Part shown: positions 19,258 to 27,992 of the stretch, in pieces
Layout: each line of letters begins with the position of its first letter
Numbering within the stretch: the stretch's first letter is position 1
Source of the DNA: Candidatus Borrarchaeum weybense
GTDB taxonomy: Archaea; Asgardarchaeota; Sifarchaeia; Borrarchaeales; Borrarchaeaceae
Assembly: GCA_019057385.1 (NCBI GenBank)
Contig: JAHQJS010000004.1
Coordinates: 980,727-1,044,726 of the forward strand
Length of the DNA: 64,000 nucleotides
Direction: 5' to 3'
Translations under genes and position numbers: made by a program
The notes under the pieces: model-generated
What the model was told of the DNA's origin: nothing
Seen by the model: only the letters and a program-made list of their open reading frames with translations
Databases searched by the model: none

Positions 19258-20784
19258 ATGATGATTCAGACCATCAAACTCCGAATGTATCCTGATGAGG
19301 CACAAGAATATCAACTCCATGAAATCTTTACCATCTATAACCGGGTGAAACGCATTGGTTACAACCTGCTGTTTCATAACGAGGACTACATGGTAGAGCG
19401 CTTCGATGAGGGTAAAACCATCCAACAGTGTTTGATGAGTCTGTGCCACAATAACCCTTATGTCAATACTATCTTGATTGACAACAAGGCGCAACTGGAA
19501 TCACAAAAGACGTGGCTGGAAAAACGACGCACACGCATGACACAGCAGCTACAAGTCATCATCAAGAAAATCAAAACAATAAAAGAGAAAGATACACATG
19601 ACAGACGGTTGAAGGGCTTATACGCCCGTAGATCCTCAATAATGGCTAAACTGCGCAATTTACACCTCGAACCTGTGGTATTTGGCACTAAGAAATTATT
19701 CAGAGACAGAATACGCGGCAACATAAGTAGGGAAGAGTTCAGGATACGACGGGATTCTTCTTTCAGTTGCATTGGAAAGCAACAGGGAAAAAACCTGAAC
19801 ATTAAAGTATTGCCCAGAAAAACCGTCAAGATACGCACCTTTTCCAAGCAAAAAGGATGCAAATGGCTGATCATTTCCCTTTCCGTAAACTCTGTGCAGG
19901 AAAAATGGTTTCAAGATATTTTTAATTCCGACAAATACACGGTGACCGTGAAACGGAAGTTTTTCAAGGGGACGGTGCGTTATTTTGTCCATGTTTCTTA
20001 TGAAATTCCAGAACCTGTACCACGTTGTGGCTACGAACATGGTGCCATCGGATTAGATTTCAACTATAATTTTGTTGCCCTGACCAATGTCGATCAACAT
20101 GGTACATTACTCTCTTATCATACCATTTCGTTTTGCAACCTCCACAGCTATCGAACAAATAAACGTAGCGATTACATCTCTTATAAGATGGATAAAGTCG
20201 TCAATTATTGCATCAATAAGGGCAAGGGCATCGTGGTCGAGGACTTACAATTCGGCCAAGAGTTTTACTATAATAAAAAACGCAACCGAAAATTCAGCAA
20301 TATGAAGACCACTGCCTTGCAGCTGTTAGAGAGAAAATGCAAAAAGCGAGGTGTGTCCTTTCGAAAGGTATTTCCTGGATATACCTCCATAATCGGGAGG
20401 TATAAGTATTCAGGATTACATAATTTGTCAACACATCACTTAGCAAGTTATGTAATAGCTCGAAGGGGTTTAGGTTTCAGGGAAGTCATTCCAGCCATCT
20501 ACGATTGGGTGTCCTCACAAGTCGGGGAGTTCATAGAACCCCGTTTGAAACAGGATAGTCCTTACCGTAGATGGTCGATGATCCATGACCTCTTCAAGCA
20601 CAGTGGGATAACTTCCTTCAAGGCTGCCGAAATACTTAAAAAAACAGTATTAATGAGGCATGTTTTGCACTCGGTGACGAGCGCACAGCCCGATAACCTT
20701 AAGGCTGGTTCTTCCTTCTTGAAAGCAGGGAGAATTGATGATTATTATAAAGTGTGGAATTTTATAACTAATCCCACATTATAA
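19258..20784 (+). CDS. tnpB: IS200/IS605 accessory TnpB-related RuvC nuclease (no adjacent TnpA)
   Basis: N-terminal TIKLRMYP, RuvC-I GLDFN, RuvC-II VVEDL, PGYTS, STHHLASYVIARRGLG. Confidence 0.8.
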   Translation: MMIQTIKLRMYPDEAQEYQLHEIFTIYNRVKRIGYNLLFHNEDYMVERFDEGKTIQQCLMSLCHNNPYVNTILIDNKAQLESQKTWLEKRRTRMTQQLQVIIKKIKTIKEKDTHDRRLKGLYARRSSIMAKLRNLHLEPVVFGTKKLFRDRIRGNISREEFRIRRDSSFSCIGKQQGKNLNIKVLPRKTVKIRTFSKQKGCKWLIISLSVNSVQEKWFQDIFNSDKYTVTVKRKFFKGTVRYFVHVSYEIPEPVPRCGYEHGAIGLDFNYNFVALTNVDQHGTLLSYHTISFCNLHSYRTNKRSDYISYKMDKVVNYCINKGKGIVVEDLQFGQEFYYNKKRNRKFSNMKTTALQLLERKCKKRGVSFRKVFPGYTSIIGRYKYSGLHNLSTHHLASYVIARRGLGFREVIPAIYDWVSSQVGEFIEPRLKQDSPYRRWSMIHDLFKHSGITSFKAAEILKKTVLMRHVLHSVTSAQPDNLKAGSSFLKAGRIDDYYKVWNFITNPTL

Positions 20785-20918: not shown

Positions 20919-21335
20919 GTGAATAAACAAACTGATTTACAAAATAATAAGGAACTTTATGGCGTTTTCAATGAATTAAGGAACTATTTAGCCGGTATGG
21001 CTGCTGGTATGACTCGTGATGAAAGTTTAATACAAGAATTGATACCTCTTCTCTTTTGTAAAATTTATACTGAAAAAAATATAGATTTGAAAGATAAGTT
21101 TCGAGCAGAATCAAAAGAATCAGCCGGTGTTATAAAAAGGCGGATTTCAGCAATTTTCAAAATGGTTAAGAAAGAATTTGAGGATATTTTTGAAGAAGAG
21201 GAAAAAATTGATCTAAAGGCGGAATCAGTTAAGTTCATTGTCAGCAAGCTGCAAAATCATGATCTAACGACGGTGGATCAAGATGCAATCGGAAATCTGT
21301 TTGAATCCTTCCTTGGTCGATCGTAGCCAAAGATA
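20919..21335 (+). pseudogene. 5' part of an N6-adenine DNA methyltransferase (HsdM-like N-terminal domain), interrupted by insertion
   Basis: FNELRNYLAG..GMTRDESLIQELIPLLFCKIY...DAIGNLFESFLG aligns with FKDIKNHLYG..GITRDEALIQEIMNLLFCKIY...NAIGDAFEVFIG of 24093..26666; continues at 23694. Confidence 0.85.
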
Positions 21336-21427
21336 CCAATTTGCTCGTAGCTAAAACAACTAATACTGATACTAAAATGTTACTCAAGCAGATTTGATTG
21401 TTTTGTATAATTAGTAGATGGTATCTA
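21331..21427. repeat. Long imperfect inverted repeat at the left junction of the insertion
   Basis: agatacca/tggtatct, tttgct/agtaga (with G-T pairs), aaaacaa/ttgtttt nested arms. Confidence 0.55.
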
Positions 21428-21523
21428 GTGTACAACTGATTTTCTCATTATTTACAAACAACTAAAATCTCAAATAACGTCTATAAACCACGAAAATTTA
21501 CTATCATACTTTTACTGTGGTCT

Positions 21524-21566
21524 CTCTCTAGTAAAATATATTATATTTCATAATTTTTCTAGAGAG
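21524..21566. promoter_or_regulatory. Palindrome flanking the TATA-like promoter of the cas7-like gene (possible operator)
   Basis: ctctctagtaaaat ... atttttctagagag around an AT-rich TATA-like stretch. Confidence 0.45.
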
Positions 21567-21595
21567 CATGTATGTATTCTATCGAGGTTGTAAAC

Positions 21596-22408
21596 ATGAA
21601 ACAAACAAAAAAACAGATCGTGGTTCGTGCCTATACTCCAATAGCTAAACCTCATAATGTGTCTATTCAAAAAAATTCCACTATGCTTCTTCTAGGTGAA
21701 ATTTCTTATGAAAGTGGTTCGAAAGCATTCAATACAAAACTGTATTACATTAAAGGGGTACGCGGAATGTTGAGGCATGCCGCCATGTCTCTTGCTCAAG
21801 ATTGTGGTATAGAAGTCTGCCATTCCAGTGAAAAAACTGAGCTCAAAGATGGGACTCAACTCGTTCCTTCTGGTTTCCATCCTCTTGGCTCATGTGATCC
21901 TCCTTGTATTCTCCGAAGAATCTTTGGCACCTTCCGCGAAGAATCCTCAATCTCCGTCTTAGTTGATCCTATTGCTTCGATAAAGCATAAAGAATACACT
22001 ACTGAGTTACCTGCTCAAAAAGTCCATATCGCCACTGAAAATAGGATAGCCCTTACTTATGATAGAACGGCTATTCAAGATTTTCGTGAAAGCTATTTCA
22101 GCGGGTATTTTAACTTCGTAATCGACATCACAAATTTAACCGATGATGAGATCAAGTTCATCGTGGAATCGTTGCTCTACATCGAAACACTTGGCAGTGG
22201 CAAAAATGCTGGTTATGGATATATCAAGATTCTAGAGGTCGAAATCCAGAATGTACATGTTTTGCGAAACATCACGATGGATAACGGAGTATATAAGATC
22301 ATTGAAGAAATCGAAGTAAAACCGATACTACTTGAAAACATCGAAGAATGGAGAAACGCGTATATGAGAGAAAATCTGATAAAAATTGAACAACAACACT
22401 CCACTTGA
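21596..22408 (+). CDS. Cas7-group RAMP protein (Csm3-like, Zn-binding insert)
   Basis: RAMP hallmarks: first strand ending TP (AYTP), KGVRGMLRH helix, C-H...H...C..C.LRRIFG, C-terminal G-rich loop LGSGKNAGYG; GAGGT RBS before ATG 21596 (alternative start 21572). Confidence 0.85.
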   Translation: MKQTKKQIVVRAYTPIAKPHNVSIQKNSTMLLLGEISYESGSKAFNTKLYYIKGVRGMLRHAAMSLAQDCGIEVCHSSEKTELKDGTQLVPSGFHPLGSCDPPCILRRIFGTFREESSISVLVDPIASIKHKEYTTELPAQKVHIATENRIALTYDRTAIQDFRESYFSGYFNFVIDITNLTDDEIKFIVESLLYIETLGSGKNAGYGYIKILEVEIQNVHVLRNITMDNGVYKIIEEIEVKPILLENIEEWRNAYMRENLIKIEQQHST

Positions 22409-22482
22409 TTAGTTGTGAAAGGGCGTGAGAAATAATGGAGATTTTCTCTTCTAAGACGCTCATCGCCCGCTTTTTCTCAGCT

Positions 22483-22606
22483 AAGACGGAATACTTCTTG
22501 TAATCTGCAAGAAGCACGTTCTTATGTGAGAGACAGTTATTATAGAGGTCCCAAACCTCGGTTGATGGGGAAAGAATGTCCGGCAGAGGGATGAATAAAA
22601 CGATAA
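22483..22606 (+). ncRNA. Structured repeat copy A (candidate guide-RNA scaffold)
   Basis: Homologous to 23573..23694; AAGACGGA-hairpin-CGTTCTT, GAGAC, GAGG-TCCCA-CCTC hairpin, ends GATAA. Confidence 0.65.
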
Positions 22607-22708
22607 CTACTTTACCAAAAGGGTTACAAAAGCCGTTACTTTCCCATGGTCTTATATCTCCCGTTTAAATGACAAAAAATTTAAAACATCCTATAGTGGT
22701 GCTGAAAA

Positions 22709-23512
22709 ATGCCAAAAAGATGGTTTAAATTATCTGGTGTAACTAAAACTCCAGTGATCACGAAAAAAAGACATTTTTTTCATAAATTTGGGGTAATTAC
22801 CATTAATGGTAGTCCTAGAGTGTTCGGTAAACTTACGAAAGGTGAGAGACGCGCTCCTATGACCTTTAGGGCATGGCATGGAACAGTAGAGTTTATTATT
22901 CCTCACTCAAAACTCGAACCAGCGCTCGCTATTGAAAGTATCGGGAGATATACCCATGAAGGGATGGGGCAAATACTGTGGACAAGTGTAAAACAACTCC
23001 CCAAAAGACCTCTCTATACTCCAAAAAAAATTAGGATTCGTAAAATGCTCCCAAAACTTTCAGATACATGGGAAAAACTAATGATCGCCATGTTACTACA
23101 TGATTTCGTGAATACTGAAAAACATTCCAGCAAAATTTACTCTGAGGTTACTATCGTTGATGACGACGTATATAATCTAGCGAAAAATCATCATAATTAC
23201 GAGATGGATGAAAGGGAATTGCCCCTCCTCGCTACCCTCCAACATTATGACCAAGTTTCTTCCTCAATTTCTCGAAAGTTTAGGTGGTCTACCTCCTCAC
23301 GTTATCGTGCAGATATTCAAGAGAAAATAGATTTTGATACACTAAAAAGAGAGATAGAATTGAGAAAACATTCTCTTTATGCTCTTTATAGCTTCATCTA
23401 TAAGTCTCAAGTACTTAATGAGATCAATGAGGCAATAGAATTTGGTTTCTCTTCTTTAAAAAACCATCTTCTTCTGATGGTCAATCTCTTTCTTGATGAC
23501 CTTTATGGATGA
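22709..23512 (+). CDS. Minimal Cas5-like RAMP fused to a circularly permuted (Cas10-type) HD nuclease
   Basis: N-terminal FKLSGVTKTP strand and G-loop IGRYTHEGMGQI; C-terminal LLHDF, HH, YD..SS..R and terminal SLKNH (first HD His motif moved to the end, as in Cas10). Confidence 0.75.
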   Translation: MPKRWFKLSGVTKTPVITKKRHFFHKFGVITINGSPRVFGKLTKGERRAPMTFRAWHGTVEFIIPHSKLEPALAIESIGRYTHEGMGQILWTSVKQLPKRPLYTPKKIRIRKMLPKLSDTWEKLMIAMLLHDFVNTEKHSSKIYSEVTIVDDDVYNLAKNHHNYEMDERELPLLATLQHYDQVSSSISRKFRWSTSSRYRADIQEKIDFDTLKREIELRKHSLYALYSFIYKSQVLNEINEAIEFGFSSLKNHLLLMVNLFLDDLYG

Positions 23513-23572
23513 GTTTTTATGTCACAAGTTATGGTGTTGCAATCCCTCTTTACAGATAAATATACAGGATGC

Positions 23573-23694
23573 AAGACGGACTGTTCATCGCATATCGCGA
23601 TGAACACGTTCTTGTACATGAGACTGAACCCGAGAGGTCCCACGCCTCAGATGACGGGAATGGATGACAGGCCAAAGGACGAGAAAAGTGATAA
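23573..23694 (+). ncRNA. Structured repeat copy B (candidate scaffold ending at the element's right junction)
   Basis: Perfect 10-bp hairpin TGTTCATCGC/GCGATGAACA with compensatory changes relative to copy A; ends GATAA immediately before the resumed MTase codons. Confidence 0.65.
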
Positions 23695-23755
23695 ATACGG
23701 ACACTTTTTCACGCCAAGAAACGTTGTCAGATTCGCTATTACCATTAATGATCCT
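23694..23755 (+). pseudogene. Resumed fragment of the interrupted methyltransferase
   Basis: YGHFFTPRNVVRFAITINDP matches EGQFFTPRNVVRMAVEILDP of the intact paralogue; homology then stops. Confidence 0.8.
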
Positions 23756-24092
23756 AGGAATGGTAATGGCATCCTCCCTATTTTTTTATTTTTTCAATAA
23801 TAGTTTTACATGAACCTCTCTTTTAAAAAAATGCCATTCATCCACATTATCATAGAAACTTCTAGCGAGATTACTAAGACTTGCCCAGAGCATCTATCTA
23901 TAACACACGAAAGATCAAACTTACTATAACAAAATAAACGTCAGAGGGGTTCTGGTAAAATGCTTCATAATTTTGAATAGTTTTGTCGGTTCCCCATACA
24001 ATTTTATAGATGTTGTTTGCAAAAAAGAACATCAAATTAGATTTCCTAGTTTTTTAACTTAAGTCAATGATTGCTCAGGTTGGTTAAGAATT

Positions 24093-26666
24093 ATGCCGAC
24101 ACGAACGAAATCAGTTGAAAAGGTTTCCTTTGCTGAGGAACGCGTCAAAGGACAGATGAGACTTATTGATTTTATTTCTGGAAGTTTAGTTGAAGCCACA
24201 CCTGAAGAGGTAGAGGCTGTTCAGGTCTTTTCTCGCAGATTGGTCGAAGAGTTTGGATATGATAAAAATCAAATCCAAACAAGACCTCAATTTAAAATCC
24301 GGGGCGCACCGTCAGGTAAACCAAAATATCCTGTTGACATAGCCGTCTTTAATGACGAAAAAAAAACCCATGGCAACTTGTTTATGATTGTCGAATGCAA
24401 ACGAAAGACTCGTCGAGATGGAGAAAAGCAACTGAAAATATATTTGGGACTATCAAGTGCTCAGATAGGAGTTTGGTTCAATGGTAGTGAGCACCTCTAC
24501 CTACAGAAGATTCTCGACAAAGAGGGAAATGTAACCTACAATTTAATTCCCACGATTCCCAAAAAAGGACAAAGAATTGAAGATATTGGCAAATACAAGC
24601 GAAAAAACCTGACGAAACCGAGTAATATAATCTCTTTGTTCAAAGATATTAAGAATCACTTATACGGAAACGTCGTAGGAATTACTCGTGATGAAGCTTT
24701 AATACAAGAAATAATGAATCTACTATTCTGCAAAATATACGATGAACTGAATACTGCTCCGGAAGATGATGTTGCTTTCAGAGTAGGAATCAATGAAGAC
24801 TCGAATCAGGTCAAGGAGAGAATCTCTGAGCTATTCAAGTTTGTGAAAATAGCATACGAGGATATCTTCGAAGAGCGAGACGAATTACGTCTTGATCCTG
24901 ACTCACTTTGTTATGTTGTTGGCGAATTGCAACCTTATAGTCTGTCAGAAGTAGATAGTAACGCAATAGGCGATGCGTTCGAGGTATTCATTGGAAAGGC
25001 GCTCAAGGGTGCCGAGGGGCAGTTTTTTACACCTCGAAATGTGGTTCGAATGGCTGTTGAGATACTTGACCCACAACCCTACGAACATATCGTTGATCCT
25101 GCATGCGGTAGCGGAGGTTTCTTAATATTTGCAATGGAACATGTGTGGCAAAAACTTAAGATTGAAGCTAAAAGAAAGAATTGGTCAACCGAAATGCTAC
25201 AGAAAAGAAAGACAGAAATTGCGAGCAAATTTTTTGGTGGAATTGACAAGGACATGTTCCTAGCAAAAGTCACAAAGGCTTACATGGCACTAATAGGTGA
25301 CGGTAGAGGCGGAATATTCTGTGAAAACTCTTTAGAATTCCCAGAAAAATGGCAGGCGACTACCCAACAAAGAATAATGCTTGGTAAATTTGATGTTCTA
25401 TTTACTAATCCTCCCTTCGGATCAAAGATCACTATCAAGAAATCATTGTATTCTCAGTTCGAGTTAAGCTTTAAATGGAATAAAAACAAAAAAACTGGTA
25501 AGTGGAAGAAGGGTAATAAACAGGCAGACAAAAGACCACCGCAAGTTCTGTTTATTGAGCGATGTTTACAATTTCTTGCTCCAAACGGAAGAATGGCAAT
25601 CGTTTTACCTGATGGTTTATTAAGCAATCCCAGCGATGGTTATATTACACAGTATATCAAGGATAATGCTGAGATCATTGGACTCGTCGATTTACCAATG
25701 AGTACTTTCTTACCTAATACACCCACGAAGACACATATTTTGTTCTTAAGAAAGAAAAAACCTGAGGGGAACTATCCAATCTTTATGGCCTACGCGAAAA
25801 CTTGTGGACATGATAAGAGAGGGAAGATCATCTATAAAGTCGGTGAAGCTGGTCAAAATGTTGTTGATGATGACATTTATGAAATATCAAAGCATTTTGC
25901 TCGCAGATATGAAAGAGTTAATAAATATGATAGGAAGGGATTTCTTGTTTATCTTGACGATTTAAAGTCAGGTATACTGTTACCGAAATATTATAATCCA
26001 GAATTGAATGAGAGATTAGAAGCGTATCGACAGACTGGTGAATATGACGTTTATTCTATAGGTGATTTAGTTAAACTGGGAAAGTTGTGGATAAGGAGAG
26101 GCCATGAAGTCGGATCTGTGAATTATGGAACTGGCGATATCCCGTTTATTCGGACTTCGGAAATATCAAATTGGGAACTAACTGCCGATCCTACTCATTG
26201 TTTAGCCGAGGATATATACGAGGAATACAAGGATCGCCAGAAACTAAAAAAAGATGATATCTTAATTATAAATGATGGTACGTACCTAATGGGTCGAACC
26301 GCGATACTTTCTGAAAATGATACAAAAATTGTTGTTCAAAGTCACATCAGAATTCTTACAGTCTTAGACCGAGAATTTATTCACCCTTATCTTTTGTTGT
26401 TCCTCTTAGGATTGAGAATTGTTCAAGAACAGATTGAGTCGAAATCCTTTAGACAAGCTACTATCTCTACTCTAGGAAACAGACTTCTTGAAATCAGAAT
26501 CCCACTACCAAAAGATGAAAAAGTAAGAAAAGAAATTGTTGAGCAAGTTTCTAACATAGTTGAGAAGCGCTCGATGCTAAGACATAAGGCGATGAATATT
26601 GAATTCAATGGAACATCAGAGAGTGTTATGGGTATAAAAAACAAGGCAACCTTGGGAAATCTATAG
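24093..26666 (+). CDS. Fused restriction-modification enzyme: HSDR_N-like PD-(D/E)xK nuclease + N6-adenine MTase + HsdS-like TRD (type IIG-like)
   Basis: VDIAVF..IVECK, GQFFTPR, DPACGSGGF, NPPF, C-terminal TRD (GDIPFIRTSEI, DDILI...G..GR.A, IPLP). Confidence 0.88.
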   Translation: MPTRTKSVEKVSFAEERVKGQMRLIDFISGSLVEATPEEVEAVQVFSRRLVEEFGYDKNQIQTRPQFKIRGAPSGKPKYPVDIAVFNDEKKTHGNLFMIVECKRKTRRDGEKQLKIYLGLSSAQIGVWFNGSEHLYLQKILDKEGNVTYNLIPTIPKKGQRIEDIGKYKRKNLTKPSNIISLFKDIKNHLYGNVVGITRDEALIQEIMNLLFCKIYDELNTAPEDDVAFRVGINEDSNQVKERISELFKFVKIAYEDIFEERDELRLDPDSLCYVVGELQPYSLSEVDSNAIGDAFEVFIGKALKGAEGQFFTPRNVVRMAVEILDPQPYEHIVDPACGSGGFLIFAMEHVWQKLKIEAKRKNWSTEMLQKRKTEIASKFFGGIDKDMFLAKVTKAYMALIGDGRGGIFCENSLEFPEKWQATTQQRIMLGKFDVLFTNPPFGSKITIKKSLYSQFELSFKWNKNKKTGKWKKGNKQADKRPPQVLFIERCLQFLAPNGRMAIVLPDGLLSNPSDGYITQYIKDNAEIIGLVDLPMSTFLPNTPTKTHILFLRKKKPEGNYPIFMAYAKTCGHDKRGKIIYKVGEAGQNVVDDDIYEISKHFARRYERVNKYDRKGFLVYLDDLKSGILLPKYYNPELNERLEAYRQTGEYDVYSIGDLVKLGKLWIRRGHEVGSVNYGTGDIPFIRTSEISNWELTADPTHCLAEDIYEEYKDRQKLKKDDILIINDGTYLMGRTAILSENDTKIVVQSHIRILTVLDREFIHPYLLLFLLGLRIVQEQIESKSFRQATISTLGNRLLEIRIPLPKDEKVRKEIVEQVSNIVEKRSMLRHKAMNIEFNGTSESVMGIKNKATLGNL

Positions 26667-26718
26667 TACCTTAGTTGATTTTTGGTCTCTTATATATCTA
26701 AGAATATAAGTTAAAGGC

Positions 26719-27555
26719 TATAAAATCGATAAGAATGGAGATAAACAACTCGATGATGATCTTTTGCAAATAGGTAAGCGATATCATGATCTACGTCAAA
26801 ATTTTAATGAAAAATATGACCATCTAGGTTTTTTCATTGACGTACAGAATTTAAAAAAAGGAATTCTCATGCCAAAATATTACAACCCAGAAATCAAGAA
26901 TGAATTAAGGAGGCTTAAAGAAACAGGCCATTATGATTTGGTAAGTATTGGAGAGTTGGAGGGACAAAACACACTCCAGATAAGTTGTGGTCACGAGATA
27001 GGTTCTATAAATTATGGCACAGGAGATATTCCTTTCATTCGCACCTCTGAAATAAGTAACTGGGAGATTGCAGCAGATCCGACTCATTGTGTTTCAGAAG
27101 ATATCTATGAGATGTACAGAACAAAGCAGGATCTACAGAAAGACGATATTCTTATTGTAAATGATGGGACCTACTTAGTTGGTCGAACTGCAATTCTATC
27201 AGAATTTGATGTGAAAATTGTTATTCAAAGTCATTTTAGAAAAATTCGTGTTCTTGATTGGAGTGACTTGACGCCGTATCTTTTGCTTTATCTGTTAGGT
27301 TTGAGAATAGTTCAGAATCAAATAGAAGCGAAAACATTTCGCCAGGCTACTATCTCGACTCTTGGAAATAGACTGCGAGAAATCATTCTGCCTATTCCAA
27401 AGAATTCCAAACTTAAAGCAGAAATTTCTGAAAGTGTAGAACTCATCGTTGGGAAACGTGCAAAATTACGGAATCAGGCTATGCACATGCAATTTGATGA
27501 TAAAAAAGAGAATGTGATGGGACTGCAAAATAAAGCAGCCCGTGGTAATATCTAG
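26719..27555 (+). pseudogene. 5'-truncated duplicate of the MTase C-terminus/TRD (or free specificity subunit from TTG 26764)
   Basis: Highly similar to the last ~270 aa of 24093..26666; in-frame homology (YKIDKNGDKQLDDDL vs YKVGEAGQNVVDDDI) extends upstream of the called start to a stop codon. Confidence 0.65.
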
Positions 27556-27626: not shown

Positions 27627-27992
27627 TCACGGAAAGGGTCTGATTTCATAAATTATCTTCCCTGTTTTTAATACATGCCGTAAGAATCTACTAATTGGAA
27701 TATGTTCATTTAGTTCCTCTTCTGTATACGCTAGTATATCACAGTCTACAGCCCTCTCTATAATCTCATAGATCTCTTTCATCCATTCTTTTCCTGATTT
27801 TGTGGGAGGCATAATAACAAAGAGGTCTAAATCACTCCATCTACCGACTTTTCCATGAGCTACAGAGCCAAACAATATTATTCTTATAACTCCCATCTCT
27901 TTAAGTTGTTGTGTAATTTCTTTTAGCCCTTGAAACAACTTCTCTTTTCTTTTTTCCTTTTGTGCGCGAAGTTCTTTCAATGTTAGACTCAT
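27627..27992 (-). CDS. Minimal nucleotidyltransferase (MNT, antitoxin type)
   Basis: ILFGS.A.G....SDLDL, VDCD, G+IIYE. Confidence 0.85.
   Translation of the reverse strand: MSLTLKELRAQKEKRKEKLFQGLKEITQQLKEMGVIRIILFGSVAHGKVGRWSDLDLFVIMPPTKSGKEWMKEIYEIIERAVDCDILAYTEEELNEHIPISRFLRHVLKTGKIIYEIRPFP

Follow-up and report, generated by a model that had tools for sequence, protein, structure and literature searches.

The window analysed here, the whole 64-kb stretch of Borrarchaeum DNA, carries a pair of genes for RAMP proteins inside an interrupted methylase gene (Table 1). The first gene encodes a Csm3-like Cas7 protein (P0002) and ends 300 nt upstream of the second, which encodes the protein of main concern (P0001), a RAMP domain joined through a basic linker to an HD domain. 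A conserved unit of about 125 nt lies 3' of each gene of the pair, and both genes, both units and a 5' leader belong to a single inserted segment. Based on homology with all paralogues and on a GAGGT ribosome-binding site, the Cas7 gene most likely starts at the ATG at position 21596 (MKQTKK...) and not at 21572. The open frame at 23519-23800, which overlaps the end RNA, most likely encodes no real protein, as its first part consists of RNA-unit sequence and similarity to the methylase is confined to its tail.

Table 1. Features of the inserted segment and of the gene that it interrupts (positions in the window)
Feature	Position	Strand	Remarks
5' part of the interrupted methylase (MTase-A)	20919..21322	+	MADS2-like profile positions 172-303
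Inserted segment (leader, Cas7 gene, RNA, RAMP-HD gene, RNA)	21323..23698		2,376 bp; uninterrupted sites in G308 and G306
5' leader of the inserted segment	21323..21595	+	273 bp; TATA-like, AT-rich stretches ahead of the Cas7 gene
Csm3-like Cas7 RAMP partner (P0002)	21596..22408	+	270 aa; Pfam RAMPs 5e-7, PADLOC Csm3 5.5e-8
Mid RNA unit, after the Cas7 gene	22463..22613	+	model R1, 92.5 bits
RAMP-HD protein (P0001)	22709..23512	+	open frame, 267 aa
P0001, RAMP domain	residues 1-108 (22709-23032)	+	AlphaFold model, PDB and Atlas comparison
P0001, basic linker	residues 98-118		
P0001, Cas10-type HD domain	residues 118-267 (23060-23512)	+	structure and profile comparison
End RNA unit, after the RAMP-HD gene	23553..23701	+	model R1, 150 bits; covarying 10-bp hairpin
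MTase-A continuation (GHFFTPRNVV...), directly right of the insertion	23699..23755	+	profile positions 309-336

In P0001 a G-loop (IGRYTHEGMG, residues 78-87, positions 22940-22969) is followed by an HD dyad (residues 131-132, 23099-23104), an HH pair (residues 161-162, 23189-23194), D181 (23249-23251) and a terminal SLKNH (residues 249-253, 23453-23467), giving the motif order HD, H, HH, D, SLxxH. Across 31 aligned homologues, which are 36-81% identical to P0001, G79, E84, G85, G87 and W91 of the G-rich loop region do not vary, and neither do H131, D132, H139, H161, H162, D181, S249, L250 and H253 of the HD domain; the invariant His and Asp set is presumed to bind metal. No conserved His lies ahead of the HD dyad in this alignment, R111 being the sole invariant residue in 92-130. 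A sequence-only reading of this DNA had proposed both a RAMP-like N-terminus of about 95 residues with a G-loop and the motif order HD, HH, D and terminal SLKNH. Both proposals hold, with a RAMP fold of about 100 residues in which the loop residues do not vary, and with each motif residue located and conserved throughout the homologues. Among 5.8 billion proteins searched, 62 are homologues of P0001, with E from 1e-166 to 1e-41, and all of those with a named source come from Asgard lineages (Borrarchaeum, Promethearchaeota). For the two proteins of the pair together, the sources are Promethearchaeota, Borrarchaeum, Sifarchaeia, Hermod- and Thorarchaeota only. P0001 has no significant match in NCBIfam or PADLOC, and its family profile finds nothing among the PDB sequences even at E 10. 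The 62 homologues, together with about 10 intact paralogues and dN/dS ratios of 0.11-0.22, place the architecture far beyond chance.

An AlphaFold model of P0001, built on the family alignment (mean pLDDT 83.8), was aligned to all 48,161 PDB cluster representatives and the best 50 matches were inspected. Among the matches listed, those to residues 1-108 are almost exclusively RAMP chains at Z 5-7, and unrelated ferredoxin-like folds reach Z 4.6 or less. The best matches are chains of 219-235 aa from type IV-A complexes (Z 7.0), which are probably Csf3; Cas6 (Z 6.9), Cmr3 (Z 6.2) and several Csm and Cmr subunits are found as well. A shape search of the ESM Atlas gave Csf3, Cmr3, the C-terminal domain of Cas6 and Csm4 as the nearest clusters, with Csf3 in the first two rows, and Foldseek with the whole P0001 model returned weak RAMP rows only (E about 0.04). 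By sequence profile the RAMP domain goes undetected in Pfam, NCBIfam and PADLOC. Judged from the modelled fold, the N-terminal domain of P0001 is a RAMP, with an RRM/ferredoxin-like core and a G-rich loop, as had been expected. The more specific label of the sequence-only reading, Cas5-like, stands in part: Csf3, Cmr3 and Csm4 are among the neighbours, but Cas6 is nearly equal to the best of them. Cas5 is a better fit than Cas6 to the modelled domain, and the fold alone does not settle the choice.

For residues 118-267, the first rank among the PDB representatives is taken by Csm1 (6ifk_A, rmsd 3.2 over 136 aligned residues) at Z 9.0, which is of moderate strength for an all-helical domain, and the second by another Csm1/Cas10 chain (6mua_A, Z 7.5); a Cmr2 chain (9x25_B) reaches Z 4.3. 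The alignment runs sequentially along Csm1 residues 2-215, and the best 50 PDB matches of P0001 include neither a canonical HD chain nor a Cas3 chain. Folded alone, the HD domain gave a poor model (pLDDT 65, with residues 88-140 under 50), for which Foldseek returned only chance helical matches (E of at least 1), a result without bearing on the fold. The Pfam HD profile (PF01966) scores 15.5 bits on P0001 against a cut-off of 22 and covers residues 121-175 with profile positions 24-104 only; since the match begins at profile position 24, the canonical first-His helix appears to be missing at the front. Protein-language-model neighbours of P0001 include HD-domain clusters at 0.88, a value that serves as a lead only.

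The motifs were further compared with those of nine Csm1 genes from other Asgard genomes, aligned over their first ~230 residues. These N-termini carry LLHDIGK, a His, HH, A-D-x-x-S-S-x-E-R and a terminal SL(Y/F)xHL, and P0001 has, in the same order, LLHDF, H139, NHH, Y-D-Q-V-S-S-S-I-S-R and SLKNHL. Moreover, hhalign of the P0001 family against the nine Asgard Csm1 sequences gave E 2.2e-5 and a probability of 76%, with 66 collinear columns that span HD, HH and D. Because the motif order is shared and the profile-profile match is collinear, the HD domain of P0001 is assigned to the Cas10 kind; by profile and modelled fold, residues 118-267 are homologous to the Cas10 HD domain. The Cas10 HD is reportedly circularly permuted relative to that of Cas3. 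The sequence-only reading had called the domain a permuted, Cas10-type HD, and both the Csm1 structural matches and the hhalign result bear this out; the topology is that of the Cas10 domain and not the canonical one. Palm and cyclase domains and a GGDD motif are absent from P0001, which stops at residue 267, right after the HD domain, and Csm1 (TIGR02578) has no match in the whole genome at E 1e-10. The suggestion of a type III-related effector that lacks Palm domains is thereby supported.

The stretch between strand 1 and the KG.RG helix of Cas7 is presumably the site of the catalytic Asp of Csm3. In an alignment of 34 homologues of the Cas7 partner, no conserved acidic residue is found in the first 49 residues or between strand 1 and the Y-x-K-G-x-R-G helix, in agreement with the sequence-only reading, which saw no obvious Asp of this kind. 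Residues 73-104 include the invariant E73, C75, H76, S78, H95, C100 and C104, of which the C75/H76/H95/C100/C104 cluster probably forms a zinc knuckle set into the RAMP core. A similar zinc knuckle is known from some type III-D/E Cas7 domains. The sequence-only reading had also proposed a complex prediction, which was run on the two proteins and supported their pairing weakly: the ipSAE was 0.54, whereas the best of the three controls reached 0.00, but this score lies in a weak band (0.60 or under) that holds just 7 of 80 solved complexes plus both of the mismatched pairs that passed. The ipSAE mark itself is reached by 58 of the 80 solved complexes and by 2 of 110 mismatched pairs. The three runs share at least 60% of contacts, and the pLDDT of the partner is at least 74.

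The unit that follows each gene is predicted by RNAalifold to form a 10-bp hairpin, 8 pairs of which are retained through changes on both sides, and further conserved long-range stems. The units have no match in Rfam, nor has any other part of the 64-kb window. A covariance model built from one genome (R1) detects 25 copies here and 21 in a same-genus genome. In four genomes from other Asgard families with the protein pair it detects no copy; the unit may be genus-specific, or it may have diverged past the reach of a single-genome model. Units within one locus share locus-specific variants, indicating that each set evolves together with its locus instead of spreading independently. A group II intron and a MITE were considered for the repeat and dropped, as no reverse transcriptase, domain V consensus or terminal inverted repeats were seen and the units co-vary with the locus. 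Solo copies lie away from intact pairs at C4:562833, C4:1262860, C6:210622, C7:108009 and C7:767888, and at least some of these are taken to be remains of decayed loci, since the copy at C7:767888 adjoins a fragment of an HD gene.

The mid unit of the window scores lowest of all locus-linked copies (92.5 versus 116-157 bits), and the end unit is among the best. Most of the mid unit is missing from a strain of about 95% identity (run X7), where a 145-nt deletion (22492-22636) runs between TACTT repeats and leaves 5 nt of microhomology (TACTT) at the joint. At other loci, the stretch that follows the mid unit matches the upstream region of the locus's own Cas7 gene, by up to 97% over 39 nt (C4:421-424 kb), compared with about 70% from one paralogous locus to another. 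Either a maintained RNA-target match or a duplicated promoter could account for this correspondence. For the window copy, the mid tail matches neither the left flank, the right flank nor its own leader beyond chance (p 0.14 or more). Against the reconstructed empty site p is about 0.1, which is not significant; the best alignment (22 of 31 positions) does coincide exactly with the right flank and the 16 bases lost from the target, a match that is suggestive at most. The apparent match of the end-RNA tail is trivial because that tail is host flank.

That the pair and its RNA units lie within an insertion is seen from two same-genus genomes (G308 and G306), in which the orthologous methylase is uninterrupted, with 87% and 85% identity, and its frame reads ...FESFLGRSLKGSKGQFFTPRNVV... 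across the site. The 5' part of the methylase in the window begins at the same GTG as its intact orthologue in G308. Relative to these genomes, 2,376 bp replace 16 bp of the target, and the right edge of the insertion (23698) coincides with the 3' end of the end RNA unit. Neither a target-site duplication nor a terminal inverted repeat was seen at the edges of 21323-23698. The leader is without a match in the rest of the genome and in four same-genus genomes, and contigs of four DNA runs contain no insertion-free form, the 145-nt deletion in the mid RNA being their sole variant. Since the site is uninterrupted in related genomes, even a core that lacks Cas1 is seen to arrive as a discrete piece of DNA.

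Further rearrangements surround the site. A TnpB-like frame of 508 aa (19258-20784, plus strand; NCBIfam guided_TnpB 4.6e-10, below cut-off) is read as a second insertion, because G308 holds just a ~150-nt spacer between the GAPDH gene and the methylase start; the 3' half of this gene has raised contig depth in metagenomes, which suggests that it is multicopy. A second, full-length methylase gene (24093-26666) occupies the place of the middle of the old one and encodes 857 aa with HSDR_N, N6_Mtase and specificity domains (MADS2-like, 443 bits, below cut-off). The old methylase gene is now in three pieces (20919-21322, 23699-23755 and 26714-27555). Its C-terminal piece (26714-27555) is 98% identical to G308 over 26714-27386, compared with 87% for the 5' piece, a contrast that hints at recombination or at a cassette exchange of specificity domains. 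At the edge of this variable islet, on the minus strand, lies a gene for a small MNT-type nucleotidyltransferase (27627-27992; Pfam NTP_transf_2, 3e-12), possibly one half of a toxin-antitoxin pair.

The genome holds about 10 intact paralogous pairs of Cas7 and RAMP-HD genes, with 65-80% identity. In all of these loci, and in a genome of another Asgard family (G087), the P0001-type gene stands behind a Cas7-like gene. In six or seven of the paralogous loci, a protein of ~1,330 aa is encoded directly upstream of the pair; its N-terminus is a helicase of the Ski2/Hel308/Brr2 type, and Pfam Cas_Cas1 is found within two of these helicase frames (40 and 36 bits). No helicase-Cas1 gene lies beside the window copy within the 64 kb. 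Paralogue pairs have dN/dS ratios of 0.11-0.22, by which measure the P0001 gene is under purifying selection. At C6:562-564 kb, the closest paralogue likewise has no helicase; its dN/dS relative to the window copy is 0.22, and its flanks, compared with the relatives in search of an empty site, fall there on different contigs. A divergent second Cas7 and RAMP-HD pair (C5:80645-82256; L013 3631-5275), with 41% and 34% identity, has no helicase-Cas1 and no RNA unit detectable by model R1. Homologues of P0001 occur in 38 of 400 Asgard genomes, in few families, often in multiple copies and with many stop-bearing fragments, and both proteins co-occur at 96% identity on independent metagenome contigs. 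The RAMP-HD homologues of G087 (loci L042-L047) are longer, at 340-390 aa, with an insert between RAMP and HD and a C-terminal extension, and a conserved stretch of ~45 nt alone follows the longer HD gene there.

ARAMP (Asgard RAMP) is reportedly the name given in 2020, by Makarova, Wolf, Shmakov, Liu, Li and Koonin, to array-less CRISPR derivatives. According to published summaries, ARAMPs are CRISPR derivatives of Asgard archaea, most but not all of which have a distinct Cas1 (PMC8730458), and they are array-less and derived from type III (PMC12669027); the nucleases usually named for them in these summaries are HNH and PD-(D/E)xK (PMC8730458, PMC12669027). The present locus has a diverged Cas7 and Cas5-like pair in an Asgard genome, and neither a CRISPR array nor a canonical adaptation module is found in the 64-kb window. 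A distinct Cas1 is absent from the window copy; a helicase-Cas1 fusion is encoded in paralogous loci of the same genome. Taken over the paralogous loci, the combination of helicase-Cas1, a diverged Cas7, a diverged Cas5, an Asgard host and no array fits ARAMP, and the module is of a kind already catalogued under that name and not a new kind. The ARAMP passages of the two summaries mention neither a Cas10-type HD on a Cas5-like RAMP nor a structured RNA, and they offer no uninterrupted-site evidence for a Cas1-less core as a discrete insertion (PMC8730458, PMC12669027); this comparison covers the two summaries. The sequence-only reading had raised, as an alternative, that the protein might be a simple relative of the ancestor of type III effectors. 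This found no support: the family is patchy among Asgard genomes, and the supplement of PMC12669027, in its wording on ARAMP, reads these systems as a reduction of type III. A simple spaced-repeat scan of the genome found a sole array (C4:148450-152110, 49 repeats of a 37-nt repeat), about 830 kb off, and a canonical cas1 (C4:153602-154474, 270 bits) adjoins it; given this array and its adjoining cas1, the organism also has an ordinary CRISPR-Cas system.

Taking the profile and model comparisons together, we regard it as likely that P0001 serves as the nuclease subunit in an ARAMP module, an array-less type III-derived CRISPR relative of Asgard archaea. Under this proposal, the fusion would condense the Cas5-Cas10 pair of type III into one protein. 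Its RAMP domain would cap an RNA-bound Cas7 filament, as Cas5 does, and its HD domain would be the sole nuclease, cutting single-stranded DNA by analogy with the HD of Cas10. No cyclic oligoadenylate would be made, and the RNA partner would most likely be the ~125-nt structured RNA that follows each gene. That the module is RNA-guided is put forward more tentatively, as a real possibility that falls short of an even chance. The fullest version of the idea seems somewhat unlikely at present: that ARAMP is truly RNA-guided, with the array replaced by single, promoter-linked ~125-nt scaffold RNAs, and that the core of Cas7, RAMP-HD and RNA is mobile, or is moved, as a 2.4-kb unit without a Cas1 of its own.

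The same observations could be explained if the module were not programmable at all. The RAMP pair would then bind the adjacent RNA as a regulator, an antitoxin-like partner or a processing substrate, and the HD domain would be a non-specific defence or addiction effector that retains the element. To our knowledge, RNA-guided complexes are the sole known context of the Cas7 and Cas5 folds, which speaks against such a reading, whereas the RNA itself is a fixed, conserved scaffold with no clearly variable guide in the window copy, whose tails match the flanks and its own leader no better than chance and the empty site at p about 0.1. The tail at C4:421-424 kb, closer to its own Cas7 upstream region than loci are to one another, would be unexpected for a module of this kind, but a duplicated promoter fits the match equally well. 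In favour of this reading, the element has the behaviour of inserted DNA, broken copies of the family are numerous in genomes, and the use of crRNA by ARAMP is called unclear in the supplement of PMC12669027, in its wording on these systems. We think a non-programmable module fairly unlikely.

A different concern is the state of this particular copy, which might be a decaying remnant, an orphan Cas7 and RAMP-HD pair that no longer functions without helicase-Cas1. The window copy may indeed be losing function, because no helicase-Cas1 accompanies it and its mid RNA is both the weakest and the one deleted in the ~95% identical strain; its site, too, is a broken methylase gene with a TnpB-like gene next to it. 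Against this, both frames are intact and P0001 and P0002 retain all invariant residues of their families, the ratio of 0.22 was obtained with a paralogue that likewise lacks a helicase, independent metagenome contigs encode homologues of the two proteins together at 96% identity, and the end RNA, at 150 bits, is among the best copies. Moreover, a distinct Cas1 is found in most ARAMPs and not in all, as summarized in PMC8730458. We consider decay an unlikely account of the copy. It could finally be supposed that the resident canonical array supplies the effector with crRNAs in trans and that the local RNA has nothing to do with guiding. Such borrowing has reportedly been proposed for the haloarchaeal HRAMP, and a 49-repeat array beside a canonical cas1 is available in the same genome. 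That array lies about 830 kb away, however, an unsystematic look noticed neither Cas6 nor repeat-like sequence in the module, and each of the ~10 paralogous modules has its own RNA copies with locus-specific variants, so that we hold supply in trans to be very unlikely.

If P0001 does act as the nuclease subunit of ARAMP, the fusion would provide direct structural and sequence evidence for the descent of ARAMP from type III. The Cas5-Cas10 pair would have shrunk to one 267-aa protein in which the HD nuclease alone is retained. In addition, the use of RNA by ARAMP becomes testable with three small parts, the Cas7 gene, the RAMP-HD gene and the 125-nt RNA. According to the wording of the 2025 CRISPR classification on this point (supplement of PMC12669027), an ARAMP that uses RNA would, if this proves true, be a new CRISPR-Cas type.

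Compared with ARAMP as summarized in PMC8730458 and PMC12669027, the module shares an Asgard host, diverged Cas7 and Cas5 proteins nearest to type III and the lack of an array. A distinct Cas1, present in most ARAMP loci, is fused to a helicase in the paralogous loci here, and the window copy, unlike most ARAMPs, has neither Cas1 nor helicase. With the RAMPs of the Cas5 group (Csm4, Cmr3 and Csf3), P0001 shares a single RRM-like core, a G-rich loop and a gene beside cas7. At about 100 aa, however, its RAMP is far shorter than the 220-320 aa of these proteins, has one helix only, lacks a second RRM or lid and is by fold equally near to the C-terminal RRM of Cas6. In type III systems, the Cas5-group subunit is the one that contacts Cas10. 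The likeness to the HD domain of Cas10 (Csm1/Cmr2) lies in the fold, in an HD dyad about 14 residues into the domain and in the order HD, H, HH, D-x-x-SS, SLxxH. Unlike Cas10, P0001 has no Palm/cyclase, zinc-finger or D4 domains and no GGDD motif; its HD domain comprises 150 aa, versus about 215 aa in Csm1, and is joined to a RAMP, whereas the HD of Cas10 forms the N-terminus of a large subunit of ~800 aa. Cas10-like large subunits of type IV-C and type I-D are also said to carry HD, and these systems reportedly resemble the present module as Class 1 effectors with a Cas10-type HD nuclease and no cyclase signalling. They are said to keep a full-length large subunit and CRISPR arrays, whereas in P0001 just the HD domain is kept, fused to a Cas5-like subunit.
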